IMG/VR virus record: IMGVR_UViG_3300029554_000001
Source of the DNA: a virus
Length of the DNA stretch: 64,000 nt
Reading direction: 5' to 3' (one strand)
Part shown: in pieces, positions 2,613-44,950 of the stretch
Layout: every line of letters begins with the position of its first letter
How positions within the stretch are numbered: position 1 is the stretch's first letter
The notes under the pieces: model-generated
Told to the model about the DNA's origin: nothing
The model's input: only the letters and a program-made list of their open reading frames with translations
The model's database searches: none
Made by a program: the position numbers and the translations under genes

Positions 2613-3320
2613 TCAATCTTCTTCATCAAGCTTAAGAAGTCTATCTTTATATTCTTTTTCAATGCGTTCGCGTTCTAACTTCTCTGCTTTGCGCTGATTT
2701 TTCTCTACAATACTGGGTCTAAAATACCCTCTTTTATCACAAAAACGTTTCATTGTAGAACGATTAACATGAAAAAGTTTTGCTACATCTGCGTAACAGT
2801 TGTCTTGTTCAACAATCAATGCCTTAATGGTCTCTTCGTATTGAGTTAACTTTGTACTTTCTCCTAAAGAACCTTTCGGTCTACCAAGCTTTACTCCACT
2901 TGCTTTTCTCATCGCAAGTGCTTCCTTGGTTCTCTGACTAATAAGATTACGTTCAATTTCAGCAGAAAGTCCAAAAGCAAATGCTAAGACTTTGCTCTGA
3001 ATATCATCGCCTAATACAAATCCATCTTTGATTGTTCTTACTTGACAGCCTTTTTCCATACACAAAGAAAGAATGTCCATAATCATATAAAGACTTCTAC
3101 CAAGACGAGAAATCTCAGAGCAAATAATGATATCTCCACTTTGTACCTTTTTAAGAAGTTTTCCTAACTTACGCTTTTCGGGATTCTTTGTGCCAGAAAT
3201 CGTTTCTTCAATCCAGCCATCAATTTTCATGCCGTGCTTTTCACAATATTGGTTGATTTCAAAACGCTGGTTCTCAACAGTCTGCTGGTCAGTACTTACT
3301 CGAATGTAACCAAAAGTCAT
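2613..3320 (-). CDS. small serine recombinase (resolvase/invertase family)
   Basis: 235-aa ORF. N-terminal catalytic motif GYIRVSTDQQ, then SRLGR and a C-terminal HTH region. No in-frame TAG; stops at TGA. Confidence 0.9.
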   Translation of the reverse strand: MTFGYIRVSTDQQTVENQRFEINQYCEKHGMKIDGWIEETISGTKNPEKRKLGKLLKKVQSGDIIICSEISRLGRSLYMIMDILSLCMEKGCQVRTIKDGFVLGDDIQSKVLAFAFGLSAEIERNLISQRTKEALAMRKASGVKLGRPKGSLGESTKLTQYEETIKALIVEQDNCYADVAKLFHVNRSTMKRFCDKRGYFRPSIVEKNQRKAEKLERERIEKEYKDRLLKLDEED

Positions 3321-3996: not shown

Positions 3997-5146
3997 ATCG
4001 CCTAAAGCTGTTGTAAATGAAGAAGCTAAAATGATTACTATGACTTAGGATAAACCTGAAGAAGATGTTTCATTGAAGGCTATTCAGCAAAGATGGGCTA
4101 CTATTTTTGGTAAATACGCTTCTACTGGTTTTGACAACTTGGCTGGCGCTTGGGCTATGTCTTGGAGTCAATTAAATAATCCGTTTTTGCAGAATCAACG
4201 TATTAAACAAGTTAACGCTAAGGCTCAAAAAGTTCAATCAGAAGACCTTCAAAATGCTTTAAACAATCCAGAAAACTCTGAAATGACTTTTTAGAGAATC
4301 AGTATGTGGCTGTATTATACTAATTATGTTTACAATATTTTAGTAAAACTTAATAGAGATACTCCCTTATTTAATTATTATTATATCCCAGAGTATGTTG
4401 ACTCGAAAGATATGTCTACCGAAGCTTTTAAAAAAGAAAGTCAAAAAGTCGATAAGATTTTAAAAGCTTTTAAACCAAATTTAACTTTAAAAACTATTAC
4501 TACTCAGGTGAGTTTGGAAGGTAAATCTTCTTATTTACCTCGTACAAGCTATGATAAGAATGATGTTAATTTTTTTGTCATGCAGAAACTTAATACTGAT
4601 ATGGTTAAATTGATTGGTTTTGGTAGTAAACAGTAGTTTACTATTGCTTTTAATATGGCAATTTTCCTTCAACCAGCTTATGATGTTAGTCAGTATCCTC
4701 AATTTATTCAGGATGTCTGGAATCAAATGCTGGAAACAGGAATTGTTGTTATAGATTAGAAAACTAAGAAAAAGAGAATTTCTCCTAAAGCGAAACTTCC
4801 CGATGGTCACATCTTGGAAAGCAATGGAGAAAATTATATGTATTGGGTAAGATTGCCTCAAGATTTGTGTTATACATTCTATTTTGATGGCTCTCATCCT
4901 AATGCATTCCCTGATACAATTGGCTTGTTTGATGATTTGACAGACTTGGATGACTATAAATGGTTGCAAGCAAATTTATTAAGTAAAGGTGTTAATAGTG
5001 TTTTAACTGCTGAGGTTCCTATTACGAAGGATGCCAAGGCCCGGTCCGACTCTACTGTTATTACTCCTGATACAATTCTTGGTTATCAGGATTTCTTTGC
5101 GGAGAATATTTCAGGTAATATATTGCCTTTCTTCGCACCATTTAGT
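3956..5146 (+). CDS. portal-like protein, exon 1
   Basis: GGGAGG SD 9 nt before TTG 3956. ORFs 4073, 4304 and 4814 share one frame, joined by TAG at 4046, 4292, 4634 and 4757. The portal call rests on size (633 aa spliced), position at the head-module start and general sequence character only. Confidence 0.55.
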
Positions 5147-6465
5147 TAAGAATTTATATGAATTATAAACGAATAGCTAACGTTCACAGTAATGTGTTCG
5201 AAAAAGCGACAAATTGAATTGCTGGGAAATCCTAAAGTTGATTCAACTACAACGTAATTATGAAATATGAATAAGCGTGAATGTTGCGAAAGCAGAAAAA
5301 ATGAATCAAATATTTACATGGTTAAATCCTAAATAAATATAAATGGGTAATCAGCCGCTAAGTTCTGAAAAAGAAAAAGTTCAACGACTATCTCTGTTAA
5401 AGAGAGTAGAACCAAGTGGTTCGAAGTGGTTTGCCCCTTTTAATTAAGGGTGAAGATATAGTCTGTGCTTTATAGAAATATAAAGAAGTTCATAAGAGAA
5501 CTGCTTAAGTGTAACGAACTTAAGTGACCAATGTTTATTAATAAATTATATTATCAAAAGACATAAAATTTTTTAAAGAAAGGAGGGATAGAATGATTCT
5601 TCACGAAGAAGTGGATATTAATATAAATAACAGAAATATTACTTATTATAAGAATAAAGGATATGATTGTAAATCTGGAGATACATTGAAAGTAAAAGAA
5701 AAAGATATCCTTCCAACAAGCCCTTTAAAAGAAGAAAGAAAATGCGATGTTTGTGGACAAAACTTCATAAGAAGAAGAGATAATAATATTGAATCTTTTA
5801 ATAGATTTGGGAAAGATGTTTGTCCTCATTGTTTTAAAACTAATAAAAATATTAAAGATATAGTTCAACAAAAGAGAGAAAAAACTTTTATAAACAACTA
5901 TGGAGTAAATAATCCTATGTTTGTTCCAGAGTTTGTTGATAAAATTGGAGATACCTTAGAAGAAAAATATGGGGCAAGGAATCCATCTCAAATAGAAGAG
6001 TTTAAAATTAAACAAGAAGAATCTATGTTGGAAAAATATGGTGCTCGTAAAGCTTTGCAAGTAAAGCAGTTTCAAGAAAAATTTATAAAAACCATAAGTG
6101 AGAATTATTCTGTGAAGACCTCTTCTCAATAGGTTGCTTGTTTTAATATGTTAAAAGAGCGTGGATATAATGTTGAATTAAATTATCCTTATTCTACTTG
6201 TTCTTTAGATATTTTAATTATTATGCCAGATGGGACAAAAATTGACTTTGAATATGATGGAAGTCATTGGCATGATGATGAATAGAAAAAAAGAGATAGA
6301 AAACGTGACGAGTTTTTAAAAGGACAGGGTTTTAAAATAATTAGAATGGAATCTAAAAGAAGTATTCCCTCTTGGGAACAAATTGAAGATGAGATAAATT
6401 ATTTAATGGAAAAACCAGAAAGAAAATTTGCTCATTTATGTATTGATAATATAAACAATTGATAG
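5147..6465 (+). mobile_element. group I intron A (portal gene) carrying an endonuclease ORF
   Basis: P1: exon TTAGT (5142-5146) pairs with GCTAA (5176-5180), with U.G at the splice site. P2 hairpin with GTAA loop at 5181-5200. Conserved core blocks shared with introns B and C: TTGCTGGGAAATCCTAAAG at 5219, GGTAATCAGCCGCTAAG, P7 GACTAT 5386-5391 / ATAGTC 5458-5463. A stop lies right after the 5' splice site. The intron ends in G 6465, leaving exon 2 in frame; the 3' junction could instead be G 6471. Confidence 0.7.
5593..6462 (+). CDS. intron-encoded homing endonuclease, PD-(D/E)xK / EDxHD-like
   Basis: AAAGGAGGG SD. 289 aa with TAG at 6130 and 6283. Repeated EKYGA.NP-type modules, then LDILI..IDFEYDGSHWHDD..RD..L...GFKIIR (Vsr/EDxHD-like core). 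Paralog of the ORF in intron B. Confidence 0.65.
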
Positions 6466-7176
6466 ACACAGGAATTCGAATTACACACCTTAGAAAATCA
6501 GCCCGAAGCAATGGATATCATTTATGATAGAACTAGAGATTTAATCGCTACTTCTGGTAATTCTGCTCTTATGAGTATTACTGATAAACCTTCTATCGCT
6601 TCTGTTAAGGCTGCTCAATATATTTAGGCTGCTAGAATTGATTACCTTACCAGACAGTACGAAAGTTTCTTAAATGAAATGATTAATAAGAATTTTGATT
6701 TGAAATTCCAATGGAAAATTTCTCTTTGGGGTGATATCTTTAATATTCGCGAGGATATCAAAATTCTTAGAGAATAGGTTGTGTCTGGTTTAGAAGGTTT
6801 TATTCCTAAACTTCTGTCGGCTAATGGTATGACTGTTGATGATTATCAACAAGCTAAAGCTTACCTTAAAGCTTTAGATATTAAAGTTGAAAAAGTCTTA
6901 GACCAAGAAAATTTAATCGCTAACCCTGTTGGTAGACCAAAGTTGAACGATGATGAGATTACCAACGATAACACTGGTAACTCTTCCAATGCTGGAACTA
7001 ATGTTTCAGACATTAAGGAGTTTTCATATAATATCAAAAAGTGCCAAATTTGCGGAAAAGAACTGAATGAAGATGAAGATGTAATTTGTAACGAATGCTT
7101 GGAAGAAATGTATGAGTCTCGTATTAATGATATGAGTACTTTTACTCACATGATTCCAAAGAAAGTAAAGGATTGA
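6466..7176 (+). CDS. portal-like protein, exon 2
   Basis: Frame of ORF 6781-7176 stays open back to 6466 through TAG at about 6626 and 6775. C-terminal CxxC..CxxC element. Stops at TGA. Confidence 0.55.
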
Positions 7177-7180
7177 AAGT

Positions 7181-7411
7181 GTGAATTTGATTAAAACATT
7201 TAAAGAAAAAAAGTGGTGTATTAAAAAAGACCACACAAATTCTGAACCTTGTTGTAATCATAATCCTTTAGACTCTAATACCACGTTGCAAAAAAGCACG
7301 AAAAAATTAATGGTTTCTCCTGATAAATAGTTTTACATTTGTTCGCAATGTCAAAAATGTTTCGTCTTTAATACAGACGAAAAGGGAGAATTAATAATTG
7401 AGAAAGCTTGA
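7181..7411 (+). CDS. small Cys-rich (zinc-ribbon-like) protein
   Basis: GTG 7181. 76 codons with one in-frame TAG. Contains CC..ICSQCQKC. Stops at TGA 7409-7411. Confidence 0.4.
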
Positions 7412-7453
7412 TTGTTCCCTTTTTTCAGTCTTTCGTAAAGGAGGTCGATTAAA

Positions 7454-7714
7454 TTGGACCCTACAATTATAATTGCTATAATTTCCTTTATCGGAACTTG
7501 TGTTGGTACTATTGGTGGTATCATTACTACCAATAAATTAACCAATTATAAAATCGAGCAGTTGCAACGAAAAGTAGATGCTCACAATAATCTAATTACT
7601 CGTACCTACGAGTTGGAAAAGAATATGGGAATTGTTTTCCAGAAAATAGAGGAAAATAAATCTGATATTCAGGATATTAAAAAAGATGTCAAAGGAATTA
7701 TGGAGAAACTATAA
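7454..7714 (+). CDS. membrane-anchored coiled-coil protein
   Basis: AAAGGAGG SD before TTG 7454. N-terminal TM segment IIIAIISFIGTCVGTIGGIITT followed by a charged helical region. Confidence 0.6.
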   Translation: MDPTIIIAIISFIGTCVGTIGGIITTNKLTNYKIEQLQRKVDAHNNLITRTYELEKNMGIVFQKIEENKSDIQDIKKDVKGIMEKL

Positions 7715-7738
7715 AAAGGAAAGTGAGAGGACAATAAT

Positions 7739-8251
7739 ATGGTAAGTAATAATTATACGCCAGAGATTGTCGAAGCTTTAAATGATTTGTTGAGAAGCTT
7801 CTTTTAGATGAATTCTATTGCAGATAATATGGCTTATTCTCTTGATTGCGAATTGAACTGCCCATAGGCTAGCGAAATTTTTCATCATAAGTTCGCGCAC
7901 GTTTTTCCAAGCGATACTTTTGCTGACAAGTTAAGCGAAATAATGGTTCAAGAAGGCGTTCGTCCTATTCGTAAATCTCTTGAGGCTAATGTGGATATTT
8001 ATGATAATATCGAATTGCTGTTTAATGATGCCTACACAGAAATGGAAAGACTTAAAAAGAAGATTCTTGATGTTATTGAATTTTTAGATTACAACAAGTC
8101 ATGTAAGGTTTTTGTAATTGTTCTGGAAAATATGGCTGAAGTAGCTGGTTCTTTGCTCCATCAGTGTGATACTTGGAGACAAAAAGCTAGACTGTACAGT
8201 ACTTCACCAGAGTTGTTTGACGCTAATTTTGAAGGATTTACAAAAATCTGA
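7739..8251 (+). CDS. hypothetical protein
   Basis: ATG 7739 is in frame with ORF 7943-8251 through two TAG codons. Stops at TGA. Confidence 0.55.
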
Positions 8252-8273
8252 AATATATATAGGTAACTATATA

Positions 8274-8612
8274 ATGGGCTATGTTTATTTTATAACAAAT
8301 GGGGAAAATATTAAAATAGGATATACTAAAAATTCAGTTCAGAAAAGACTAAAACAATTAAATACTGGCAGTGATAAGCAATTATATATCTTAGGATATA
8401 TGAAAGGCACTATGGCTGATGAGGAAAACCTTCATTCTAAATTTTAGCAATATAAAATTAGAAATAATGGAGAATGGTTTGAGCCATCAGATGATATATT
8501 GGACTATATTAATATAGTTAACCTTGTTCCTAATTGCTACGTTCGGAAGAACGAGGCTTGGAATAACAAAGTAATGGCTATGACTTCTGTGCCATTGTCA
8601 TTTACATCATAA
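8274..8612 (+). CDS. T5orf172 / GIY-YIG-like domain protein (free-standing endonuclease-type gene)
   Basis: MGYVYFITNGENIKIGYT..R...L..(27 aa)..E..LH.KF-TAG-QYKIRNNGEWF pattern. TAG at 8445-8447 is read through to TAA 8610-8612. Confidence 0.55.
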
Positions 8613-8634
8613 GGAGAAAGGAGGAAGAAAAATA

Positions 8635-10548
8635 TTGGATAAAAAAGTTCTGAAATTTGAACTTTCTCCGCAAAGTTTGAAAATTAAGAATGTGTTAAAA
8701 AATGACTTTATTGCTATCGACGTTTACGCGATTTCTGATGTCTACCCTAATAGAAATAATAGCTATTTCCCTGTGTCTGCTATGCAAGACGCTAAACCTA
8801 CCTTTTATAATAAACCCGCTCTTGGTGCTTTTGATACTACTCATGATGACTTTAAAGCTCATGAAATGGAATATAGATGGGATAATGAGTTACAACAAGA
8901 TTACTTTGACTTTACTAATGGTAAATGTGAAGTCCCACTTGGCGTAATTCGTGGCGAAGATTTGGTTGAAATTGTCGAACATGACGGTCAAACTTGGGTA
9001 CATTTTACTTGCGTTCTTTGGGCTAAATATGCTTATAAACAAGTTAAAAGATTGCTTAAGGATACTAAAAAGAAAATTTCTGTAGAAATAGAAGTCCTTG
9101 AAAGTCATATAGATGAAAATAAAGTCGAAGTAATAGATAGATTCATTTTTGATGGATTTACTATTCTTGGTTCTGCTGTTACTGAAGCTATCCCTAATGC
9201 ACATTTAACCATTCTTGATAAAATTAATGACGCTGTTTATCAGAAACAGGAAAAATGCTTATCTTTCGCTTATAAAGAGTTGGAAGATAATAACAATAAA
9301 GATAAAAATTCTGGCTCTGATACAGATAATAAAAATGAGGATTTCGATTCCATTATTCCTGATAACGGAATTGTTAATGAAAAAGTGGACGAAATCACGA
9401 TGGATAATGAACAAAGAGGGGAGGAACCAAAAACAATGACCTATGAAGAGAAAAGACAACTTCTCGAATCTTTTCTGAATAGCGGTCTTGATGAGAATGC
9501 TTCTCATTACAGTGTCACGGAAATTAACGACAATGTTGTTTGCTTTAGCCTTGATGATGAAAATTTTAAAGCTACTTATAGCATCAACGAAGAAAATGTC
9601 GCTAATGTTGATATGGACGCTAAAGAAAAGATTGTACTCTCTAAGGATGAAAATCCTGAAGATGAGAGTGGTAAAGAGACTGAATCCAAGGAATGTGAAT
9701 CTGAAGACGGCAAGTGCGAAGTCTGCGGTAACAACCCTTGCACTTGTGCGCATGAAGATGACGATGGTAATAAGGATGACGGTCATAAAGAGAATGAGTC
9801 TGAAGATGACAAAAATGATGATGACCACGACCATGATGATGATAATGATGATAACGACGATGATGATGGCAAAAAGGAAACCGAGGCTGAGGATAACGAT
9901 GGTGAAAAGAAAATCGAAAATTGCGAAGACCCCGCTCAGTTTGCCGCTACTGATGTAACTGTCGATGAATCTCATGCTGACCATGGACAGATTGAAGGTG
10001 AAGAGCTTGGTTCTCCTAAAGTTGATACTGATATCCTCAAAGAACATGATGATGGCAGTATTTTAGTCGGCCAACCTTCTGGTGAAAGTAATGTTATTCA
10101 GGATACCCACTATGCTGTCGGTGATGAACAACTTACTGCTGATGAACTTTATGAGAGATTCAATACTCTTAATACCTCTTTCGCTGAACTGACTGAAAAG
10201 TATAACGCTCTTAATGCTCAGTTTAACGCAAAGAAAAATGCCGAACTTTATGCTTTGGCTTGTTCTTTGGTTGATTCTGAAGAAGATTTGACTGAGGAAA
10301 ATGCTACTAATATTAAGGCATTTATGAAAGAAAATTGTGATAACAGTACTTATGCTTCCGATGAGGAACTTAATGAGGCTGTTGACCATAAAATTGCAGA
10401 TGCTCTTTATGCTCAGAAGAAACTTAGTAGAAAAGCTAAGGAGAAAGAGTTTTCTGCTGATATCGTTAAGGATAAACCTGTTGTTACTGAAGTGAACGAC
10501 AGCGCAAATAACCTTAAAAATGCAATGAAAAATCTTAATAAGATTTAA
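8635..10548 (+). CDS. acidic scaffold-like protein (possible protease-scaffold fusion)
   Basis: AAAGGAGG SD before TTG 8635. 637 aa. Globular N-terminal ~200 aa, an extreme D/E/N tract (about 9700-9900) and a C-terminal coiled coil. Lies between the portal and capsid genes. The protease call is not supported by clear catalytic motifs. Confidence 0.5.
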   Translation: MDKKVLKFELSPQSLKIKNVLKNDFIAIDVYAISDVYPNRNNSYFPVSAMQDAKPTFYNKPALGAFDTTHDDFKAHEMEYRWDNELQQDYFDFTNGKCEVPLGVIRGEDLVEIVEHDGQTWVHFTCVLWAKYAYKQVKRLLKDTKKKISVEIEVLESHIDENKVEVIDRFIFDGFTILGSAVTEAIPNAHLTILDKINDAVYQKQEKCLSFAYKELEDNNNKDKNSGSDTDNKNEDFDSIIPDNGIVNEKVDEITMDNEQRGEEPKTMTYEEKRQLLESFLNSGLDENASHYSVTEINDNVVCFSLDDENFKATYSINEENVANVDMDAKEKIVLSKDENPEDESGKETESKECESEDGKCEVCGNNPCTCAHEDDDGNKDDGHKENESEDDKNDDDHDHDDDNDDNDDDDGKKETEAEDNDGEKKIENCEDPAQFAATDVTVDESHADHGQIEGEELGSPKVDTDILKEHDDGSILVGQPSGESNVIQDTHYAVGDEQLTADELYERFNTLNTSFAELTEKYNALNAQFNAKKNAELYALACSLVDSEEDLTEENATNIKAFMKENCDNSTYASDEELNEAVDHKIADALYAQKKLSRKAKEKEFSADIVKDKPVVTEVNDSANNLKNAMKNLNKI

Positions 10549-10572
10549 TTAAAAAAGGAGGATAACTTTATT

Positions 10573-11100
10573 ATGAAATTTATTGAGAAGATTTTGATGG
10601 CTTCTGAAGATGTTAAAAGCTATCTGGTTTCTGGCGTTTGCAAAGACAAGGAACTCGCTGATGGTTCTTTGGTTGAAATTGGCGACCTCATCGACCATGA
10701 GGTTTATAAGGGTCTGAAGGATATGAATACTCGTGAGATTAAGCCTTACGCTGGTACTGGTCGTGTCGGTATCGTTGACTATGTTGGCGTTTCTAAGGGC
10801 GAAATCATGGGCGTTGTCTACAGTGAGGGTGTTAAGACTTGCGGTCTTCCTTGCCCTGCTGGTGCTCATACTCGCGTTCGTTGCCCCAAGCTTGGTGACG
10901 AGTTCTATCTCGGTGAAGATAACTTTGAGTCTGCTCCTACGGCTGGTCAGTTCGCTGTTGCTGGTTCTGATGGTCAGTGGGCTCCTGCTGCTGTTGCTGC
11001 TGCTGACAAGCTCTGTGTTAAGGTCGAGTTTGGCAAGGATAAGATTATCGGTGTCAAGAACGAGGGTAAGAAGTTCTATTGCACCGTTGTCCACGAGTAA
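10573..11100 (+). CDS. abundant capsid-associated protein candidate (decoration/cement?)
   Basis: AAAGGAGG SD. 175 aa. GC-richer, strongly biased codon choice like the capsid and tail-tube genes. No TAG. Sits directly upstream of the major capsid gene. Confidence 0.45.
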   Translation: MKFIEKILMASEDVKSYLVSGVCKDKELADGSLVEIGDLIDHEVYKGLKDMNTREIKPYAGTGRVGIVDYVGVSKGEIMGVVYSEGVKTCGLPCPAGAHTRVRCPKLGDEFYLGEDNFESAPTAGQFAVAGSDGQWAPAAVAAADKLCVKVEFGKDKIIGVKNEGKKFYCTVVHE

Positions 11101-11106
11101 TTTTAA

Positions 11107-11143
11107 ATTGTTCTTGAATAATTGTTCTTGAATAACTTGAATA
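11107..11143 (+). repeat. tandem 14-bp repeat ATTGTTCTTGAATA x2 plus partial ACTTGAATA
   Basis: Read directly: 11107-11120, 11121-11134, partial copy 11135-11143. Lies just upstream of a promoter-like element and the capsid gene. Confidence 0.7.
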
Positions 11144-11156
11144 GTTTAAAAAAATA

Positions 11157-11184
11157 TTGATATTTACTTTATGATTTTTATAAA
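11157..11184 (+). promoter_or_regulatory. sigma70-like promoter upstream of the major capsid gene
   Basis: TTGATA (11157-11162), 16-nt spacer, TATAAA (11179-11184). Confidence 0.45.
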
Positions 11185-11208
11185 TTAATTAAGGAGGATT
11201 TTGTTATT

Positions 11209-11704
11209 ATGAAACAAATTTTTAGTTATAACAAATTCAACGAAGATGTCGCTGATGGTCTCGTTGAAACTTGCTATTCTTTGGCTCAGAAGTCCATTGA
11301 GGGTAAGAACAACACCCCTGAGTATATTGAAGCTAATAAGACCTTTAACCAAGAGTTTATGAAGTATTGTGTTGAGAACGCTGGCATGAAGTGGAGCGGT
11401 CTCGATATGATTAAGAATCCTATGGTCTACAAGAAGAGTAACTTCCTTGAGACTTTTGATACCATTCTTGCTGGTGCTATCACTCCTGTTGTTCCTACTG
11501 TTGCTGCGTCTGGTTATGAACAGCTTTATGATGTCACTCAGGTTGGTTTCGGTGATGTTGCTAAGTATGAAGTCGATAGCAATGAGCTCTTCATTGTGAA
11601 TAGCCTTGCTGAAGGCATTGCTCGTGGTGGTGTTCAGACTGCTTCTAACACTGAGTATACTATTTCTGCTAAGAGAGAGCAGATTTCTCTCTATGTTGAC
11701 TGGT
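11209..11704 (+). CDS. major capsid protein, exon 1
   Basis: AAGGAGG SD. Biased codon usage. Exon ends in phase 1 at U 11704 (P1 model). Spliced product is 370 aa. The capsid call rests on position, size and expression-type codon bias. Confidence 0.6.
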
Positions 11705-13151
11705 TAAATATAAGTACGTTATAAATAGCTAGGGCGTATAGTAATATGCGTAAAAATATTTCCATTTAATTGCTGGAATACCGTAAAGACAATCAAACTA
11801 CAACGCAAAATTGAAATAGATTTAATCGTGATAGTTGCGAAAGCAGAAAAAATTGATTGTATGATATAAGGTTAAACCCTAAGTATCTTAAAAATTGGTA
11901 ATCAGCAGCCAAGCTTCGAAAAGAAGAAGGTTCAACGACTATCCTCGTAAGAGGAGTAGGAATATAGTCAATAAATTATTCCGAAATGGTGGACATCCTA
12001 TAGGGATGAAGATATAGTCTAAGCTTGTGTGAAAATACAAGAATCCGAAAGGGTTAGAGCGAATTGACGATTCGAAAAATTTAGTGTTTAAATAAAATAA
12101 AAAGGAGGTTTGTATGTTAAAAGAAAATCAATTGATTGAAATTCCTTGGACACAAACCGCTTAGAAATATTTCAATGAAAAAGGTTATAGTCTTTTTAAA
12201 GGGAAGACTATTCATGTTAAACCAGAAGAATTACCAGAAGGAAGCCATAGAGAAGTTGTGGCTGTTTGTGATTTTTGTGGAAAAGAAATAACGGTTCAAT
12301 ACAAAAAATATTTAAAAAGAATAGAAAAGCATGATGGTAAATATTGTTGTAGAGATTGTTGGGGAAAGAATAAAGAGCTAATAGCTCAAAGAAATAATAA
12401 GTCTATAAAAACAAATTTAGAAAAATATGGAGTAGATAATCCTGCTAAAAGTGAAGAAATTAAGGATAAATCTAAAAAGACTTTAAATGAAAAATATGGG
12501 GTGGATAATCCTCGGTAGATTAAGGAAGGTCAAGAAAAAGCAAAACAGACTTGTTTGAAAAAATATGGAGTTGAATATCCAATTTTAACAAAAGAAGCAA
12601 AAGAAAAAGCTGTTAAAACTTGTTTGGAAAAATATGGAGATGTAAATCCTTTTTCGAATAAAGAAGTAAGAGCTAAAGCTATCAACACTTGCAGGGAAAA
12701 ATACGGTTGTGATTATCCCGTACAAAATCCAGAAGTGCGAAAAAGAATGCAAGAAGCATTAGCTAATAAAAAAGAATTAATTCCATGTTCTTCACAACAG
12801 TTAAAAATTTATGAAATGCTTTTAGATGAATATAAAGTAGAGTTGAACTACCCTTTAAGTCAACTCAATTTAGATGTAGCTATTTTTATTGGAGATATTA
12901 AAATAGATTTGGAATATGATGGTTGGTATTGGCATCAAGACCAGTAGAAAGATATAAAAAGAGATAGAGTAGTTCAAAAAATGGGTTACAAAGTCTTAAG
13001 AATAAAAGGAGACCATTCTATTCCAGAAAAACAAGAAATAATTGACAAGATAAATTGGCTATTAAAAGATAATAATTATTATGCTGAAATAATTTTAAAA
13101 GATTATGAATAGCAAAAAGCTAAAAACACTAAATAACTCTTAATATAACTG
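11705..13151 (+). mobile_element. group I intron B (major capsid gene) carrying an endonuclease ORF
   Basis: P1: CTGGT (11700-11704) pairs with GCTAG (11728-11732), with U.G at the splice site. P2 CGTATA-GTAA-TATGCG at 11735-11750. Core blocks homologous to introns A and C (TTGCTGGAATACCGTAAAG at 11770). Terminal G 13151. Splicing joins T + AC into TAC and restores the frame (VDW-Y-HVASG). Confidence 0.7.
12114..13136 (+). CDS. intron-encoded homing endonuclease, PD-(D/E)xK / EDxHD-like
   Basis: AAAGGAGG SD. ORFs 12258 and 12555 share one frame with ATG 12114; 4 in-frame TAG. Five or more EKYG(V/D).NP modules, then LDVAIF..IDLEYDGWYWHQD..RD....MGYKVLRI. Confidence 0.65.
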
Positions 13152-13768
13152 ACCACGTGGCATCGGGTCGCCAAGATTGGGGTAAGCTTCTCCAGAAGAT
13201 TGGTGCTTCTTTTGCCGCTTATATTCAGGCTCGTCTTGCTAAGGTAATGGCTTCTATTATTACCAATAACACTGACGTTGCCACTAACAATCAAGATGGT
13301 ATCGCTGGCTATATGGCTAACGGTCTTACTGATGAAAACTGGCTCAAAGTTGCACGTTTGGTAAAACTTGCTAATGGCGGTGCTGATGTTTATGCTCTTG
13401 GTACTTCTATTGCTCTCGCTTCTGTCCTTCCTGACAGTGCAAAGGGTTTCCGTTATGGTGAGGATAGCGCTATTGTTAGAGATGGCTTCCTGCCTGATTA
13501 CAAGAATGTTCCTATGATTGAACTGGGTAACGCTCTTGTTCCTAACACCATCAATGGTGAGCCTGAAGTCGTTCTTCCTGATGATATTATTTACATGCTT
13601 CCTCTTGGTATGAATAAGCCTATCAAGGTTGTCATGGAAGGTAATACCGTTTCTGTTGAGAAGGACCCCTTGTTTGCTGCTGACCATACTTACGGTTTCA
13701 CCGTTGACATGCGTATGGGTATGGACGCTATTGTAGGTAGCAAGATTGGTGCTATTACTCTTAACTAA
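13152..13768 (+). CDS. major capsid protein, exon 2
   Basis: Frame of ORF 13157-13768. No TAG. The codon-biased region resumes right after the intron's terminal G. Confidence 0.6.
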
Positions 13769-13876
13769 TATCAAATTATAATCTAATTATAAGTAATTAA
13801 TTATAATAATTAGTTAATTTCGTAAATTCTGGTTGCTCCAGATATGTTTAAAAGGTTTAAAAGGAGATTGTAAAAA

Positions 13877-14725
13877 ATGGCTGTAAATAAGAAAACTATT
13901 AAAAATACAGAAGAAGTTGTAAACGAAACTAATAAGGAACAAATTGCTGAGAATGCGGAGACTTCTGTTAAGGAGTCTCCTGCTACTCAGTCTTCTATCT
14001 CGTTAGAAGATATTCAAGCTATGATGGCAAAGTTCCAGTCTACGATTGAATCTTTGAGTAGTGAACTCAAGGAAGAGAAAGCAAAGAACGAAAAGTTGGC
14101 AGAAGCAATCAAAGAATCTACTTTGAATGATAGAGAGGGCGATACAGAAAGTTCTTTTAAGGCAAAAGAAGTACAGGATAATACTTCTAATACAACAGAA
14201 AGACTTTTGGAAATTCTTGGCAATAGAAAGAGTGACAAGGAAATTGTTATTGTTCATAATCGTGAGTTGCTTGGTGGTCTTTCAACCGCTATTCAGCTTA
14301 CTGGTTTGACTATTAATTTCCATACTCTCGGAGAACAGCGTGTTCTTAGTTGGCAACAGTTTGAGGAATGTGTTTCCAAATATCGTAAGTGGTTCGATAA
14401 AGAAATTATTCTTTTGGCTCCCGAATTCGCTGATGTTGCGGAACGCTATAATGTTTCCTGTTTAAAGAGAGAGGGTCATGCTGTTGTTACGAAGGGAGAC
14501 CTCGTAAATATTTACAAGAAGAGTGAGCGTGAACTTGAGGATTACATGAATTCTTTGACTGAAGCTGATAAAGACTTTATTTGTTCTTATTGGCTTGGAA
14601 AGTGCTATGAAAATGATGCTAAATATCGTGTTAGAAGTAAAGTTGAGCTTCTGAACAGAATTTCTAACAAGGGTGTTTTTGACAATCTGTTGGCTCAAAT
14701 GAATTTTGATTCAATAAGACATTAA
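13877..14725 (+). CDS. hypothetical structural-module protein
   Basis: AAAGGAG SD. 282-aa intact ORF with an acidic coiled-coil N-terminus. Confidence 0.6.
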   Translation: MAVNKKTIKNTEEVVNETNKEQIAENAETSVKESPATQSSISLEDIQAMMAKFQSTIESLSSELKEEKAKNEKLAEAIKESTLNDREGDTESSFKAKEVQDNTSNTTERLLEILGNRKSDKEIVIVHNRELLGGLSTAIQLTGLTINFHTLGEQRVLSWQQFEECVSKYRKWFDKEIILLAPEFADVAERYNVSCLKREGHAVVTKGDLVNIYKKSERELEDYMNSLTEADKDFICSYWLGKCYENDAKYRVRSKVELLNRISNKGVFDNLLAQMNFDSIRH

Positions 14726-14744
14726 ACAAATAAGGAGGGTTTAA

Positions 14745-15452
14745 ATGGGCATTTTGTTTAGTGATGTCTATCGAAAAGCAATAGCCTTATTTGATGACCC
14801 AAGGATTACGACAGCGTATGAGACTAATCCTTTGCAATTTAATAAGATAATGTACACCTATTTGCAAAATGCAATATCTATGTTTAACAACCCTCTAAGC
14901 GTTTCTTTACGTTTATCTCAATATAAAGAACCAAAAGGTATCATGCAAGTTTTTGAAGGGGATGGTAAGAATAATAAATTCGAACTTGACCCTGAGTTTG
15001 AGATTCAGGATAATTCAGTATATAATTATATTGAGGGAGAATTATTGGTGCAAGGCTCGATTGATAAAGAAGCTCACACTGTAGAATTCCCTGATGTGTT
15101 ACCTGAAGGCAAGCAATATGCAGTTGAGCAATATTATGTTGGTGAATTTACTGACAATTTTGAAGGCTTAACTAATAAAAATGTAAATGGTACAAGTTTA
15201 GTGGTAGGTTATGTTAAAGATATTCTTGCTCGTTTGCTTGTAAAAGCATGGGGAGAAGAAGAGCGCAATTTGTTATTAGATATTCGCAATTTAATGCAAG
15301 ACAGCGATTTCAAGATTATGTCTAATGACCGTATCTTAAAAGCAAAAAACGAATGGGTAGACCAACTTGATTCAGAAATATACAATTATCAAAATAGACT
15401 TGCGTGGCAAATCCGTTTTATGGGTGGTAGTAAGTTTATAGGAAGGGGGTAA
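14745..15452 (+). CDS. hypothetical protein (head-tail connector candidate by position)
   Basis: AAGGAGG SD. 235-aa intact ORF. Confidence 0.5.
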   Translation: MGILFSDVYRKAIALFDDPRITTAYETNPLQFNKIMYTYLQNAISMFNNPLSVSLRLSQYKEPKGIMQVFEGDGKNNKFELDPEFEIQDNSVYNYIEGELLVQGSIDKEAHTVEFPDVLPEGKQYAVEQYYVGEFTDNFEGLTNKNVNGTSLVVGYVKDILARLLVKAWGEEERNLLLDIRNLMQDSDFKIMSNDRILKAKNEWVDQLDSEIYNYQNRLAWQIRFMGGSKFIGRG

Positions 15453-15454
15453 AG

Positions 15455-15790
15455 ATGGATAAAGACGAAAAGAACTTCAAAGTAGTTTTATCTATTAATG
15501 AGAAAATTATATGCTTAGAAGAAATAGTTTCAAAATTGAAGAAAGTTCTTTATGTATATGACAAATCTCAAGAACCCGATTCCACTTATAATTACCGTGT
15601 GTATTGTGGTGGAATAATGATGTATGTTTCGTCAAGTAATATTCTTTTTGATGGTGAATTAGTAAGTATTATAATTAATATCAATGCTATTTTAACGAAT
15701 CAATTAGATAAAGGACAGATTAAGAAGTTAATATTTGAATCAATCAATTATGCAGAGTATTTATTAAAGAAATACAAAAACGAAGGTTAA
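15455..15790 (+). CDS. hypothetical protein
   Basis: 111-aa ORF tightly packed after the previous gene. Confidence 0.5.
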   Translation: MDKDEKNFKVVLSINEKIICLEEIVSKLKKVLYVYDKSQEPDSTYNYRVYCGGIMMYVSSSNILFDGELVSIIININAILTNQLDKGQIKKLIFESINYAEYLLKKYKNEG

Positions 15791-15807
15791 GGAGATTATG
15801 GATTAAA

Positions 15808-17031
15808 ATGGCGATTTTAAATACTACCGATATTGTTGATAGCAGTATCATGCTCAAAGCTCGTTTAAAGCATAACATGGTTGGAGATAATTATTACATT
15901 CAAAATCTGCAACATAAACGCAATTAGGATTGGGAGTATAGATATAATGTAGTTGATATAGAAGAAGAAAGAGACCGACAAATAGAATATACAACAAAGA
16001 TGCCTGAATATACAGCCTTAGATAGCGTAGTTATAAGGAATGTAAAAGGTGAGCGTGGAGAGGATTTGGGAACAGATTGGGCTGAGATTTCTTTTAGAGA
16101 TTTAAAATATCCAAATCCACTGGGAAAAAGGTATCGTTTTTCTTTGGCGTTTCCTGATATGAAAGAGATGTCAGAAGAAGAAAAACATTATGATACTAGT
16201 GTCTGGATTGCTATTAATAAAGCTCCTATAAATCCACGGAACTCTTGTGTTGTGCGTAGATGCAATGCGAATATTGCGCTACTCGGGTCTCCGACAAACA
16301 ATCAAACCGATGCTACTGAGATAAGGTACGAGCCTATTGTACTGGAAAATGAATTGAAATATATGAACCAGTATTATAACAAAACTTTGGTAATACCTCA
16401 AGCTGAGTGGTATGTTACGATGCAATTAAATTATTTCTCTAACGCTGTTAAGATTAATAGCCGAGTTATTCTTGGTGGAACAAATTAGCAGGATATAGAA
16501 AATAATGCTATATATAAAGTTAAAGCTGTTATAAAGAGTACATCTACAAAAACTTTTGCAAAAAGTGGTTTTACAGGGTTGGAAGACATACCTTTCGTAG
16601 TCTTGGCTTTGGATAAAGACATGTGGAGTGCAGAAGACAATGCGATTACTCGTGTTGCTAATAATGCGCCATTGTATTTTATTCCAAAAAAGGAAGACCT
16701 TCATGATGAGGAGTACCATATTACTCTTAAAAATTGTGATGATTATAAAATAATTCTTGGCAATAGTCAAGAATATGAAACTGAATTAAGTTTCAAAGGT
16801 GGTACGCTTCCTACTCAATTTGAGTATAAAGTTGTGTTAAATGGTATAAAAGAGGAAAACTGGAGCAAATATTATGAGTTTAAACAAACTGGTGACAATA
16901 CTTTTGTTATTAAAAATCTAAAAACCTGTAATAGAGGAACATTGGATGTAATTGCTATATGTGCTGACCCAGATATAGCGGGAGTTACCATTAGTGAAAT
17001 TTTTAGCTTTAAGTTAGGAGGTTTTTATTAA
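15808..17031 (+). CDS. hypothetical structural protein
   Basis: ATG 15808 is in frame with ORFs 16000 and 16579 through TAG at about 15925 and 16486. 407 aa. Confidence 0.55.
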
Positions 17032-17687
17032 TGATTGATTCTAGTTACGCACCTTCAGCTTTTAATAGGTTTGTTAACTTAGATGGAGTAGAAGATAGAA
17101 TAATTTATTATTTGTTATCTCCTAATAAAAAAACCCCCGAAGAATTGGAACAAACTCATATTATTTGGAAACTTTTGTATTATAATGATGCAGATGCTCT
17201 TAATAGAGAATTGCCTACATATCAATAGATTACTTCTTTGATATGTTCTGATGATATAACACAAACCGACAAACGTATTTTTAGAAGTCCTCATTTTGAA
17301 GATGCTTGGACGGTTGAAAGTACATTATTAAAAATTTATATCGACCAAATTATTCCTACAGATAGATACAAAGCTGTTGTTAATTTTGGAATTGATATAA
17401 TTACACATAATAAATGTATTAATATCAATCCAAGTGATGATGATAAAACTTATCCTGTTGATACAGTTGATGGGGTTGAAATTCCTATTACTGGAAAAAG
17501 TCGTGTTTCTACTTTGTTAAAAGCTGTTTTGTTTTTGCTCAATGGCGCTCATGTATAGGGTGTTGGCAATTTAGAGTTTTCAACAATGATGAGTAGATTC
17601 CAATAGGCTCAATATGGAATTTGGAACAACAGAAATTTTGAAGGAATTAAAGTTGTATTAGGATGCTATATGAGTGGGGTGTCTTAA
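17031..17687 (+). CDS. hypothetical structural protein
   Basis: ORFs 17031 and 17238 share one frame. Three TAG are read through to TAA 17685-17687. Start overlaps the previous stop. Confidence 0.55.
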
Positions 17688-18695
17688 TTGGCAATATCTA
17701 AAGAGTTACAAGCTAAAATGGAAATGTACGAACAAGCCTATTTCGGTCTGGATTTACCAGTGCCATTTAAAGGCTTGTTAATTTATCCAGTTTTAACGAA
17801 AGATTACTATAATTTTTATGCTAATTTATCTTGTTTTACTCAAGATAAAAATATTAAAGAAATAAAAGTTGTAGATGAAAATGGAATAGAAACTACTAAA
17901 AAAGTGGCTAATCCTGAAGGTATTGGTATGTCTTATATGGCATATTTAATATAGAATATGGAAAACCAAGAATATGGACCTATGGTTACTTCTTAGGTAA
18001 TTAATATGTTCGAACTTGTGCTCCATGAAAAAAATGGTTTGTTTTGTCCTCATTGTGGATTCAAACGAACTTAGTTTGAAGTTATCAAAGAATATGCTAA
18101 ATTCCAAGAAACATTACCTGATAATTTAAGCGAAACTGAAAAGAAAGTTAAAGCTCTTGAGTTTATTAATAATTATGCTATATGTCCAGAATGTAAAAAC
18201 AAAATGAGAGATATCTATGGAATTCAAACGGGTGCTAATGGCGTGAAAAAATTATATATATACGATATAGTTTTAGAACCAAAAGAACTTGATGAATTTA
18301 TAGCTATTATTACACACCAAAATATTTTGGATTACGATGGAGATAGGTATATCGACCCCAATTTAAGAGAAGAAATGGAATTAAAGGCGAGGATGCAGAA
18401 CAAGAATTACACATCTCCAAGTTTGGAAAAATAGCTTGTCTGTATATCCATTAGTTCTCCATACACTATGGAGATGTTAAAAGAACAAGTAAGTTTGAGA
18501 AAACTTTCTTTAATGCTAAAAACCATTGATGCTAAGGGGTATTATTACGCTTAGATTTAGGGTGCTATGTCTCGGATGGTTTAGTTTAAGGATGGAGACA
18601 TTCACCATTGGATATTTACTGATAACAAGAAGGATATGTCTAAGGAAATTATGACAATGAATGATTTCCAAAAGAAGTTTGCTTCTGTTACATAA
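17688..18695 (+). CDS. hypothetical protein with CxxC..CxxC zinc ribbon
   Basis: ORFs 17688 and 18204 share one frame, with 7 in-frame TAG. Contains FCPHCG and ICPECK. TAA at 18693-18695. Confidence 0.55.
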
Positions 18696-19501
18696 TGGAG
18701 AGAAAAGTGGAAAAATTTACGACTGAAGAAAAACAAAATATTATAAAAGAATATGAGTCTGGATTGTCTTCTGGATAGCTGGCAGAAAAATATCGGTGTA
18801 ATAAATCGACAATTTGCGACATTCTTAAAAAGAATGGAGTTAAAGCAAGAGATGGACATTTTAAGAGATAGTATTCTTTTAATGAACATTATTTTGACAA
18901 AATTGATTCAGAAGATAAAGCTTATTTTTTGGGTTTGTTATTTGCTGATGGATGTAATTTAAAAGAAAGAAATGTAGTTTGTATTGAGTTGGTAAAAACT
19001 GATTCTGCTATATTAGAAAAATTTGCTGAAGTAACTGAAAATAATAGACCATTGTATGATTATAATCACAAAAATGGTTAGACTTCTACAAAATTAAGTT
19101 TTACTAGTAAATATTTTTGTGAAATTCTTGATAAACTTGGATGTGTACCAAGGAAGTCTTTGGTATTGCAATTTCCAGATTATTTAGACAAATCTCTTTT
19201 AAGACATTTTCTTAGAGGATATTTTGATGGAGATGGAAGTATTACTTTATATAGAGGTAAAAGTACGATTAATCGGCAAGCTTCTGTAGTAAGTAGTAAA
19301 GATTTTATAGAATCTCTTAAAGAAAAAATAAACCAAATTAACCCGAACATACATTACATTACTAGGTCAACTGGTAATGGAAGTAGTTTGGTTTTATGTA
19401 GGAAAGATTCTATTAAAGAATTTTTATCTTATATTTATGAAGACTGTTCTATATATTTAGAAAGAAAATTTCTAAGATATCAAGAACTAATAAATAAATA
19501 A
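18695..19501 (+). CDS. LAGLIDADG homing endonuclease, free-standing, directly upstream of intron C
   Basis: ATG overlaps the previous stop (TAATG). Frame of ORF 19160-19501 with 3 in-frame TAG. Two LAGLIDADG-type motifs, YFLGLLFADGC and LRGYFDGDGS. N-terminal HTH-like region. Confidence 0.75.
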
Positions 19502-19515
19502 GGAGGATATATATT

Positions 19516-19522
19516 ATGTTAT
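19516..19522 (+). CDS. major tail protein, 7-nt exon 1 (ATGTTAT)
   Basis: AAGGAGG SD 8 nt upstream of ATG 19516. GTTAT (19518-19522) pairs with GTAAC (19556-19560), with U.G at the splice site. Phase-1 end matches the phase of exon 2. Confidence 0.55.
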
Positions 19523-19916
19523 CGGATGCCGAGTCCGCATTTGCTTGGCTAAAGAGTAACCGTATACAGTGATGTGTATGTAAAAATAGTCTTTGAATTG
19601 CTGGAATTCCCTAAAGCTGTTTATGCTACAACAAAAGGATGAAATATGCCTAATTGTGAATGCTACGAAAGTAAAAAGAAATAAACAGATGATATATGGT
19701 TAAATCCTAAGTGTTGAATAATGGGTAATCAGCCGCTAAGTCTTGAATAAAGAAAAGTTCAACGACCATTTCGAAAGGAAGTATACCACAAGTGATTGGT
19801 GGTAGAAGTGGAGACTGCCTTTTAATAAAAGGTAATGATATGGTCTAATCTTATATGAAAATATAAGGCGAAAGCAAAATAAGAGTAGCGTCTTATTTTA
19901 AATTAAAATGTTTTAG
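19523..19916 (+). mobile_element. group I intron C (major tail gene), ORF-less
   Basis: 394 nt. P2 CGTATACA-GTGA-TGTGTATG at 19561-19580. Core blocks homologous to A and B (TTGCTGGAATTCCCTAAAG at 19598, GGTAATCAGCCGCTAAG, GTTCAACGACCAT). Terminal G 19916. Confidence 0.6.
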
Positions 19917-20938
19917 CTGGTGTAGGCCGCGCCACTCTTCTCGATGGCGAGCGCCTTGTTGCTACTGCAAATACTCTGATTGATTCTAGTATTACTATTG
20001 GAATCAGCTTCGAGGACCTGCGTGCTGGTATGGGCAATAAGCTTTATGGTCGTTATGCGCATACTTCTACTTTTGACCTCAAGCTGACCGATGCCATGTT
20101 CTCTCTTGAGTATCTTGCCATGAATACTGGTTCTGAGGTTGAACTCGGTGGTGACGCTATGAAAGACGAGAAGCTCACTGCTGATGCTACTGGTAAGGTT
20201 ACTTTGTCTTATAAGGCTGTTCCTATGGTTGGTAATACTAATGTTTATGCTTATATTAAGAAGTCTGGCACCGACGAAGGCTATCAGCGTTATGCTGTTG
20301 CTGGCGATGGTGTAAATGAAGTTTCTCTTGGTGAGGCAATGAAGGATGCCGAAGTTTGTGTTCGTTATATGTATCATAATGATATTGCTTCTAAGATTAC
20401 CATTAGCGCTAACTTCATTCCTAAGACTCTGACTTGCATTCTTGAGGCTAATCTTTACAACGGTGGTTCTTGTGATGTTGAGACCTCTACCCTCGCTGGT
20501 AAGGTTATCATTAAGGTTCCTCGTTTCATGCTCAACGGTTCTCAAGAACTCAGCATGAGCGCTTCTGGTGTTTCTAACACTTCTATTGAAGGTTCTGCTC
20601 TTGCTTCTGGTTGTGCTGGCTGCGACGGCGACGGCGTTTATGCTGAAATCGTTCAGGTTCTTGAAAACAAGACCGCCGCTGACATGTTCGCTAGCATTGT
20701 TATTGAGGATAAAAACCAGACCGCAAAGGCTGGCGATAAGATTGAACTTAACGTCTATGCTTGCCCTGTTGATGGTGCTCCTATTAAGTTGAATCCTGAC
20801 CAGTATACGGTTGCTGTTACCACTGGTGCTAGCACTTATGCTAATGGTGTCGTTACCGTTGTGGATACTAGTGTCGTTACTGTTAAGTTTGTCCCTAATG
20901 ATAAGCTTTCCGACACTATGAATATTACTGTTGCTTAA
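19917..20938 (+). CDS. major tail (tube) protein with C-terminal Ig-like domain, exon 2
   Basis: Frame of ORF 20030-20938 is open back to 19907. T + CT makes TCT, giving MLSGVGRATLLDG... Strong codon bias and no TAG. The C-terminal ~90 aa have a Big_2-like pattern. Spliced product is 342 aa. Confidence 0.6.
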
Positions 20939-23330: not shown

Positions 23331-23795
23331 TGACACAAGAGGTCAGGGTTGCCAGAGAAGTTGTATATTGGGCTACCATCCAGTGATGCAATGGAGGCTT
23401 ATTAGGGTTGTCAGGTTTCCACAGGGTAGCAATTAAAACTGTCCGACCAACATACTTTCATGCGTGGTTTCAAACGGAAGAGAAAGGCGTTTTAAGGTGT
23501 CGGCATAAACCTTATCATCTTATATACCATGTTGTATATTTAGACCAGCTACGAGGCATAGTCTTGCAGCTTTTTAATGTGGTGTCCATGAGCACAGGAT
23601 AAGGACTTAAAGAAGACCAAATTTACGGGTTCGTAAAACGGGTCTGAGCCATATATCTCATGTACCATGTGTACAAGGAGTTCCTTAAGACGTTAGAGTT
23701 TAGCTTTAGCGTTTTATGCAATGAAAAAGGTGAGACAGGGAGTAGCTACCTTTTGTTTTGCCCCAACAAAACAATTATCATCTTTTTCATTTTTA
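23331..23795 (+). ncRNA. candidate structured non-coding RNA (class unknown)
   Basis: About 460 nt with no credible ORF in a genome otherwise packed with genes. Visibly more G+C than its surroundings. Chain of helices: 23341-47/23442-48 enclosing 23372-77/23425-30; 23472-76/23488-92; 23522-27/23534-39; 23614-18/23641-45 enclosing TTTACG-GGTT-CGTAAA; a 14-bp helix 23686-99/23703-16; 23725-31/23748-54; and the terminator-like 23753-60/23767-74 followed by a T-rich tail. The strand is assumed. Confidence 0.4.
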
Positions 23796-27429: not shown

Positions 27430-27966
27430 ATGAATAAAGGAAAAGCTTTTGAAAAGGATTTTCAAGAAGCGGCTAAGAATGATGAGCTGTTTGTGTTAAG
27501 GTTACATGATACTTCTTTATCTTGGCAGCATGAAAAAACTTCAAGGTTTCAACCTGAGAACCCCTGTGATTTTTTGGTATATGAACTTCCCAATTTATTT
27601 GCTATTGAGTGTAAAAGCACTTGTTATAAATCTTTGACTATACAGAGAGATATAAAAGATAAAGCTTCTAAGATGATTAAAGCTCATTAGATTAACAGTC
27701 TGGTGAAATTTGCTCAATAGGAGGGGGTATTTGCTGGTTTTTTATTTAATTTTAGAGATGATGAAGACATTTCAAATAATGTAACTTACTGGTTATCTAT
27801 ATAGAATTTTAGTAAATTTTTATGTGAAAATGATAAACAATCCATTAATAAATTAGATTGTATTCAATATGGAGCAATTATAATTGAACAAAAAATAAAG
27901 AGAACTCATTATACTTATAATATAAAGAAAATGCTTGAAGATATTAGAAAGGAGGAAATTAAATAA
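27430..27966 (+). CDS. recU: RecU-like Holliday-junction resolvase
   Basis: AAGAGG SD. Frame continues through 3 TAG to TAA 27964-27966. Contains ENPCDFLVYE..LFAIECKST and then HQINSL..Q-TAG-EGVFAGFLFNF (D..E.K nuclease core). Confidence 0.55.
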
Positions 27967-30438: not shown

Positions 30439-30452
30439 GGAGGAGATTGAAA

Positions 30453-44860: not shown

Positions 44861-44950
44861 AAGAGCAAGAAAAAAAGGGGTGTGGTGTGGAACAAAAACT
44901 CGCCACACCTCATCCCTTAGACGAAAAAATAACGAAAGGAGTTAAAAGAA

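Follow-up and report, generated by a model that had tools for sequence, protein, structure and literature searches.

We found that the genes for the portal, capsid and tail-tube proteins of an uncultured gut phage in which TAG stands for glutamine are, with a probability of about 90%, split by three paralogous group I introns. The phage is represented by IMG/VR virus record IMGVR_UViG_3300029554_000001, of which a stretch of 64,000 nucleotides (the window) was analyzed. Intron A (5147 to, most likely, 6471) lies in the portal gene, intron B (11705 to 13151) in the capsid gene and intron C (19523 to 19910) in the tube gene, all on the + strand. The identity of the introns, their exact or near-exact boundaries, the selected conservation of their RNA structure and their presence/absence polymorphism in relatives are the parts of this reading that comparison establishes directly. 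An earlier reading of the same letters without database searches (the sequence-only reading) had proposed three homologous group I introns in these genes; its core proposal holds, and two of its 3' ends, one name and one judgment of rarity had to be revised.

The identity of the introns is indicated by a general RNA model, by a profile of their own family and by direct alignment, which together place three homologous group I introns where they had been proposed. The Rfam model RF00028, with a gathering threshold of 50 bits, matched intron B with 65.2 bits (11710 to 12041) and intron C with 58.4 bits (19556 to 19867). A family profile (nhmmer) seeded with four intron cores, those of A, B, C and one relative, gave nearly equal scores of 281, 288 and 280 bits for A, B and C, which are themselves among the seeds, and in an alignment of the three cores the mean column identity is 75%. 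No fourth copy of the family was found in the window with this profile, and the Rfam scan of the window returned no other intron types. The conserved core blocks quoted in the sequence-only reading are all there, but the second reads CCTAAA, not CCTAAG, in intron A. Inteins were ruled out by stop codons in the host frame of the inserts and by the match to the RNA model. A stop codon follows immediately after the 5' splice site in A and six codons after it in B, and such stops should keep ribosomes out of the ribozyme core; in-frame stops in phage introns have been discussed in a review (PMC3984707).

The 5' ends agree with the earlier proposal. A five-nucleotide guide beside P2 pairs with the last five exon bases to form P1, with a U.G pair at the splice site, as TTAGT/GCTAA in A, CTGGT/GCTAG in B and GTTAT/GTAAC in C; P2 stems of unlike sequence are capped by the GNRA loops GTAA, GTAA and GTGA, respectively. 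Introns B and C fall in phase 1, as claimed, and A in phase 0. The junctions were fixed by intron-less alleles in relatives that are 95 to 99% identical in the host protein, and these alleles agree, base by base, with the predicted spliced sequence at all three sites. For intron B both ends fit: L002, L003, L008 and other contigs read GACTGGT|ATCATG, compared with GACTGGT|ACCACG in the spliced window, whose predicted junction is GTTGACTGGT|ACCACGTGG, and contig L017 carries at this site a 382-nucleotide version of the intron with the same ends and without a homing endonuclease gene (HEG). The first codon of exon 2 at this site is TAC in all B-bearing alleles and TAT in all B-less alleles.

The end of intron C, by contrast with the proposed 19916, lies at 19910, as given by the intron-less allele of L001 and by the BLAST match between the window and L001, which resumes at 19911. 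That allele reads ATGTTAT|TTTTAGCTGG, also given as ATGTTAT|TTTTAGCTGGTG; its uninterrupted tube start is ATGTTATTTTTAGCTGG, the intron-less tube sequence at the site is AGGAGGATATATATTATGTTATTTTTAGCTGGTGTAGGCC, and uninterrupted tube homologues start MLFLAGVGRA. The tube gene is thus made of a 7-nucleotide exon 1, ATGTTAT (19516 to 19522), an intron of 388 nucleotides without HEG, and an exon 2 (19911 to 20938) without a start codon of its own.

For intron A, the proposed end at 6465 is most likely to be replaced by 6471, judging from intron-less portal alleles, six of them aligned and others tabulated for that site, all of which do without ACACAG. The wrong 3' ends of A and C were invisible to a reading-frame check because both shifts are of six nucleotides. 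The predicted junction with the end at 6471 is CCATTTAGT|GAATTCGAA, compared with TTTAGT|ACACAGGAA for the end at 6465, which is also a G, also splices in frame and is preceded by a TA that could pair with J7/9 (TG) if one wobble pair is allowed. With the shorter intron, the portal would have two extra residues (Thr-Gln) relative to its intron-less relatives. We think this unlikely, since ACACAG is missing from the intron-less portal alleles examined, whose proteins are 95 to 98% identical, and since an end at 6471 gives the 606 codons that relatives also have. P9.0, formed by the last two bases of J7/9 and the two that precede the terminal G, also speaks for 6471: its pairing there is Watson-Crick (CA/TG) and in register with the pairs of the other introns (CT/AG for B, AT/AT for C, TT/AA for the tube intron of L017), and a P10-like ATTCG/CGAAT pairing stands 2 nucleotides from the splice site, compared with 8 for 6465. 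The introns would accordingly end in G at 6471, 13151 and 19910. The covariation of P9.0 assumes the end at 6471 for A and at 19910 for C. P10 has 6 bp in C (TTTTAG/CTAAAG) and 5 bp, offset, in A.

Covariation shows that the RNA structure of these elements is under selection. The helices P2 to P9, including P5a, P5b, P5c, P7.1, P7.2 and the P7 pseudoknot, were defined on intron C, and pairs were counted explicitly in 17 copies of the family, taken from the window and from relatives, with P8 limited to its four outer pairs, where the alignment is gapped. Standard pairs make up 94.4% of the pair cells, compared with 38 to 43% in controls in which the pairing partners were slid by one to three columns, and in 44 of the 68 pairs both partners change. 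The nine different sequences of P5a all pair 8/8 and the ten variants of inner P6 all pair 4/4, with covariation in all 8 and all 4 pairs, respectively. Pairing in P7 is 100%, including the single pair that is C-G in the C type instead of U-A. At the tube site, P1 changes in step with the exon (GTTAT/GTAAC in the window versus GGTAT/GTACC in L017). The compensatory changes that the sequence-only reading had described for P1 and P2 thus extend to P3, P5, P5a, P5b, P6, P7, P7.1, P7.2, P9 and P9.0. The family has a branched P5a/b/c extension, and it belongs to subgroup IA, since two extra hairpins, P7.1 and P7.2, separate P7 from the 3' strand of P3 and covary. Thermodynamic folding of intron C alone (z = -2.49) recovered many of the defined helices.

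These results bear on the view that the inserts are decayed remnants that no longer splice, so that the virion genes are expressed as fragments or the genome is defective. Under the standard genetic code the nuclease frames in the inserts do look broken, but the late genes use TAG as a sense codon throughout, and the frames are intact when it is read as such. Compensatory changes keep the ribozyme helices across the 17 copies, the same arrangement is repeated in several long contigs, and the start of tube exon 2 offers no canonical in-frame start, the first in-frame ATG being at 20030. We consider decay very improbable.

The three interrupted genes can be identified from their spliced products. 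Portal exon 1 (4031 to 5146; 372 codons with 5 in-frame TAG), whose tblastn match in the intron-bearing contig L027 stops exactly at residue 372, joins exon 2 (6472 to 7176), placed by alignment to intron-less alleles. The 606-codon product corresponds to an 1,818-nucleotide match in relatives and matches phrog_2739 (portal) over residues 49 to 550. The YonB-like capsid gene consists of exon 1 (11209 to 11704), which ends in phase 1 and was delimited with the intron-less alleles of L002, L003 and L008, and exon 2 (13152 to 13768); its spliced product of 370 codons equals a 1,110-nucleotide uninterrupted match in L002 and L003 and matches phrog_4088 over residues 43 to 368, and Pfam YonB matches the exon 2 product in L001. 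The alignments of the portal and capsid proteins to phage families therefore bridge the junctions, and intron-less alleles exist at three of three sites. The third spliced protein matches a virion structural family of PHROG and has 344 residues, the same length as P0001 (MLFLAGVGRATLL...), with 98% identity computed on the splice at 19916. Pfam assigns genes of this neighborhood in the near-identical 222,624-bp contig L001 to YonD_N, YonB, YomW and YomU_Tube; the virion module is therefore SPbeta-like. The earlier naming of portal and major capsid genes stands, and the gene it called major tail is more exactly the tail-tube gene. Its description of the three as the most abundant virion genes does not hold, since portal is not among the most abundant virion proteins.

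The source is an uncultured phage of about 215 to 220 kb with this SPbeta-like virion module; related contigs span 150 to 222 kb. It has no close cultured relative, since megablast against cultured phages matched only about 90 to 140 nucleotides of intron core, and capsid homologues in cultured phages are at most 25% identical. Long reading frames emerge only when TAG is read as sense, as in 30429 to 42038 (33 in-frame TAG) and 44933 to 48970 (20 in-frame TAG). Columns with TAG in the window hold TAG in relatives or else Gln, the latter in 134 of the 204 remaining non-stop cells; the phage therefore reads TAG as glutamine (genetic code 15). TAG codons are many in the portal gene, the nuclease genes and the tape-measure-sized gene, and there are none in the capsid (11209 to 13768) and tube (19516 to 20938) genes. 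ARAGORN found no transfer RNA gene in the window and thus no suppressor there. Standard gene callers fail twice on such DNA, as TAG is sense and as introns interrupt three essential virion genes; with the corrected coordinates the proteins come out at full length, with 606 residues for the portal, 370 for the capsid and 344 for the tube.

Introns A and B have their cores at about 5147 to 5500 and 11705 to 12075 and carry HEGs in their 3' tails. HEG A (5593 to 6462, +) encodes 289 residues with 2 in-frame TAG and HEG B (12114 to 13136, +) 340 residues with 4. The two are paralogous (32% identity, E = 3e-44), and one in-frame TAG falls in the same alignment column in both. Both have a Cys-rich region, which is a zinc-finger region in HEG A, followed by DUF7487 repeats and a DUF559/MTES_1575 nuclease domain. 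Pfam E values are 3.4e-20 (DUF7487), 1.4e-11 (MTES_1575) and 2.5e-05 (DUF559) for HEG A, and 1.3e-30 (DUF7487) and 5.9e-07 (DUF559) for HEG B; the scores in the two genes are 24.5 and 29.8 bits for DUF559 (cutoff, 20.6) and 73 and 107 bits for DUF7487 (cutoff, 27). Both match PHROG homing endonuclease families, HEG B matching phrog_12131 at 1.8e-28. A sequence search of HEG B against solved structures returned only a chance zinc-finger match and no solved homing endonuclease; a relationship to the EDxHD/Vsr-like enzyme I-Bth0305I is conceivable. Intron C contains no nuclease or long reading frame, and a free-standing LAGLIDADG gene (18695 to 19501, +), an insertion relative to L001, ends 21 nucleotides before it and 14 nucleotides before the tube start codon. 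This gene, which shares one base with the stop codon of the gene before it, encodes a helix-turn-helix and two LAGLIDADG motifs, has 3 in-frame TAG, and matches Pfam LAGLIDADG_3 (1.5e-11) and phrog_4645 (1.1e-61). It is absent from L001, L002, L004, L009, L011 and L014. All three TAG-bearing nuclease genes are probably fully translatable only once the phage suppresses TAG.

We propose that in each intron the guide beside P2 pairs with the last five bases of the exon, setting the U.G pair at the 5' splice site, and that guanosine-initiated transesterification would then remove the intron at its terminal G, positioned by P9.0 and, where present, by P10. The outcome would be intact portal, capsid and tube messenger RNAs. 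At the DNA level, introns A and B would spread by means of their own nucleases, which combine DUF7487 with a DUF559-type PD-(D/E)XK domain; these may cut the intron-less alleles of co-infecting relatives, and repair would copy the intron across. Intron C was probably carried by the LAGLIDADG gene 21 nucleotides upstream, or by ordinary recombination. The splicing chemistry of the three introns follows here from what is established for group I introns, and cutting and repair from the homing paradigm; the activity, targets and timing of expression of the nucleases are likewise inferred.

Several points weigh against this interpretation. The Rfam search that the sequence-only reading had suggested as a check was above the threshold for B and C but gave only 44.9 bits for A, at 5250 to 5485, with the 5' half misaligned, when 5100 to 5620 was scanned alone; at E <= 1, intron A was not recovered in the scan of the whole window, where the speed filters removed it. 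Intron B lacks P10 and A has a weak one, and the 3' splice sites of both lie about 1 kb from the catalytic core. The 3' site of A is placed by intron-less alleles and a 2-bp P9.0, and the G at 6465 may be an alternative or additional site. Splicing of all three introns is predicted from sequence, and nuclease cleavage is putative, as is any connection of the LAGLIDADG gene with intron C. Lastly, intron C and the LAGLIDADG gene do not always go together: of the two, one genome (L011) has just the intron, and five genomes have just the gene, in a divergent form.

The distribution of the elements in relatives is that of mobile DNA. Introns A, B and C and the LAGLIDADG gene are present or absent in every combination across 15 related contigs: all four occur in the window and UViG 152312, the LAGLIDADG gene and C alone in 170107, B and C without the LAGLIDADG gene in 162176, B alone in 154761, and none of the four in 175151. 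At site A, A-bearing alleles have AGT, which pairs with the guide, and A-less alleles have ACT. The presence pattern and the exon differences at sites A and B lend indirect support to the putative cleavage of intron-less alleles by the nucleases of A and B. The divergent LAGLIDADG allele found without C (L003, L005, L006, L007 and L013) is an insertion of about 1,065 nucleotides at the same intergenic spot, with 65 to 80% nucleotide identity to the allele of the window, and the tube start in those five contigs is identical to that of genomes without both elements.

This pattern is relevant to a form of collaborative homing that would add to the proposed mechanism rather than replace it, in which the LAGLIDADG nuclease mobilizes intron C in trans by cutting intron-less tube alleles at or near the insertion site, while the intron shields its own genome. 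Intron C lacks a nuclease frame and the LAGLIDADG gene ends just upstream of it; all four contigs with the nuclease allele of the window carry C (the window, UViG 152312, 170107 and 3300012662_000030), although elements 21 nucleotides apart would be co-inherited anyway and these genomes are not independent samples. A homologous LAGLIDADG gene lies inside a related capsid-gene intron of L010, and the mechanism is documented in two other phages (PMC3984707). Intron C in L011 without the nuclease gene, and the five genomes with the divergent allele beside an intact intron-less site of identical sequence, weigh against such a pairing, and cleavage might instead be directed at the intergenic point where the nuclease gene itself is inserted. 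On balance we regard trans mobilization of C as possible, with the odds somewhat against it.

Members of the intron family also occupy further sites in the relatives. A second capsid site near residue 235 is filled in L009 (8562 to 10134; also in L024) and in L016 (10703 to 11926). A third, near residue 115, is filled in L010 (about 8700 to 10000; also in L025), with a LAGLIDADG nuclease inside the intron. A second portal site about 100 nucleotides upstream of site A is filled in L007 (3778 to 5162; also in L028), where an HNH nuclease is inserted within the ribozyme core. The core at the second capsid site, in L009 and likewise in L016, is 95% identical to that of intron B, and the exon upstream ends AACTGGT, compared with GACTGGT at site B. 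A shared hexamer of this kind would be expected if new sites were reached through RNA, by reverse splicing into transcripts with a hexamer complementary to the guide, and not by homing alone. However, any working insertion must keep P1, and the hexamer could have been selected for once an event at the DNA level had occurred; the nuclease in the L009 copy belongs to the same family but has diverged, which fits a changed nuclease specificity, and no reverse transcriptase was seen among the genes scanned. A route through RNA therefore seems improbable to us, and DNA-level spread by nucleases remains our preferred account.

Related introns are found well beyond this phage group. Cores 70 to 77% identical over 64 to 87% of intron C occur in 164 cultured-phage records, among them Staphylococcus Kayvirus and Sextaecvirus, Enterocloster, Bacillus, Clostridium c-st and Lactococcus 949-group phages. 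In Staphylococcus phage vB-SscS-F1 (L032, MW589261.1, 6224 to 6357) a related core lies in a split "major tail protein" gene, in SapYZU04 (L034) it splits the gene after the tail sheath gene, in Lactococcus phage AM1 (L031, KY554768.1, 82848 to 82935) it lies in the DNA polymerase III alpha gene, and in Enterocloster phage CB457P2 it lies in an early structural-region gene with an I-TevI-like nuclease. The cores of AM1, vB-SscS-F1 and SapYZU04 stand unannotated in gaps between split gene fragments, and the relatives in cultured phages are mostly not annotated as introns. Compared with these RF00028 introns of the Firmicutes-phage type, the present case has three paralogues in one virion module, a host phage that reads TAG as Gln and nuclease genes that carry TAG.

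A close precedent is found in Cluster J mycobacteriophages, where reverse transcription-PCR and N-terminal sequencing proved that capsid and tail introns with shared sequence are spliced (PMC3706429). There, as here, a major capsid intron has a nuclease gene and tail introns have none, the copies share sequence, only some members of the cluster carry introns, exon 1 ends in U and the intron ends in G. The systems differ in that splicing is proved there and deduced from sequence here, and in that the Cluster J phages have high-GC hosts, the standard code and two intron types, in contrast to one family at at least seven sites. This precedent and the 164 cultured-phage records make the word unusual, used in the sequence-only reading for three such ribozymes in one phage, too strong; introns in phage capsid and tail genes, and multiple related introns per phage, are already documented, and nothing found here overturns present understanding. 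Less often seen together are three paralogues in one virion module, nuclease genes with TAG and rich natural polymorphism.

The T4 genes td, nrdB and nrdD and Staphylococcus phage Twort provide several related introns of subgroup IA per genome. Like the introns described here, they have nuclease frames in peripheral loops or 3' of the core, vary in presence among relatives and have stop codons shortly after the 5' splice site; the T4 introns differ in lying in genes of nucleotide metabolism and in having GIY-YIG or HNH nucleases, not the DUF559 type. Multiple related introns per phage are classic in T4 and Twort (PMC2988022, PMC3984707). Collaborative homing of an intron without a reading frame by a free-standing nuclease (PMC3984707), and T4 mobE trans homing (PMC2790892), resemble the arrangement of intron C beside a free-standing nuclease gene, with co-occurrence in relatives, but here the nuclease is of the LAGLIDADG type, its cleavage site is putative, and the intron also stands alone in one genome. 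In Agate phages, an intron homing nuclease carries reassigned in-frame stops, which are proposed to delay it to late infection (bioRxiv 10.1101/2021.08.26.457843); the TAG codons in the nuclease genes of the window fit that proposal. The Agate case differs in that TGA is read as Trp and the gene is early, where here TAG is read as Gln in late virion genes and two paralogous nucleases share an aligned TAG.

Other features of the window were seen in passing. Upstream of the portal gene lies an Amidase_2 and SH3 endolysin gene (1512 to 2555, +) with 2 in-frame TAG. Two recombinase genes lie inside or beside the virion module: a serine recombinase on the opposite strand (2613 to 3320, -; resolvase domain, 3.2e-35) without TAG, and a tyrosine-recombinase-like gene (27966 to 28946, +). 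A small T5orf172/MUG113 (GIY-YIG-like) gene (8274 to 8612, +) lies between the portal-proximal genes and the YonD-like gene. The Rfam "drum" RNA (RF02958) matched 23350 to 23446 (+) at 43.6 bits, barely over its threshold of 43, downstream of a metallo-beta-lactamase/beta-CASP gene (21834 to 23282). A free-standing GIY-YIG homing-endonuclease-like gene (23819 to 25069, +; 416 residues, 7 in-frame TAG, Pfam 5.7e-13) lies where the window differs from L001 by an insertion or a replacement.

Long contigs, many of which share one IMG dataset number, whose host proteins are 95 to 99% identical and which differ only in introns and nuclease genes constitute a natural system for intron mobility. Within this set, homing, the trans mobilization of an intron without HEG and the movement of a core to a second site with the same hexamer can be tested, as can the question of whether in-frame TAG delays nuclease production until the code switch, as for Agate phages. 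We speculate, and only tentatively, that a single intron family is actively colonizing the virion genes of a TAG-recoded clade in four ways. In this doubtful scheme, introns might exchange nuclease partners, as the DUF559-type, LAGLIDADG and HNH nucleases in family copies suggest; one guide might be reused at new sites, as at the two ACTGGT capsid sites with cores 95% identical; intron C might use the neighboring LAGLIDADG nuclease in trans; and TAG codons might hold back nuclease synthesis until the late code switch of the phage. If this were true, the introns would be late-acting weapons between co-infecting strains, not neutral passengers.

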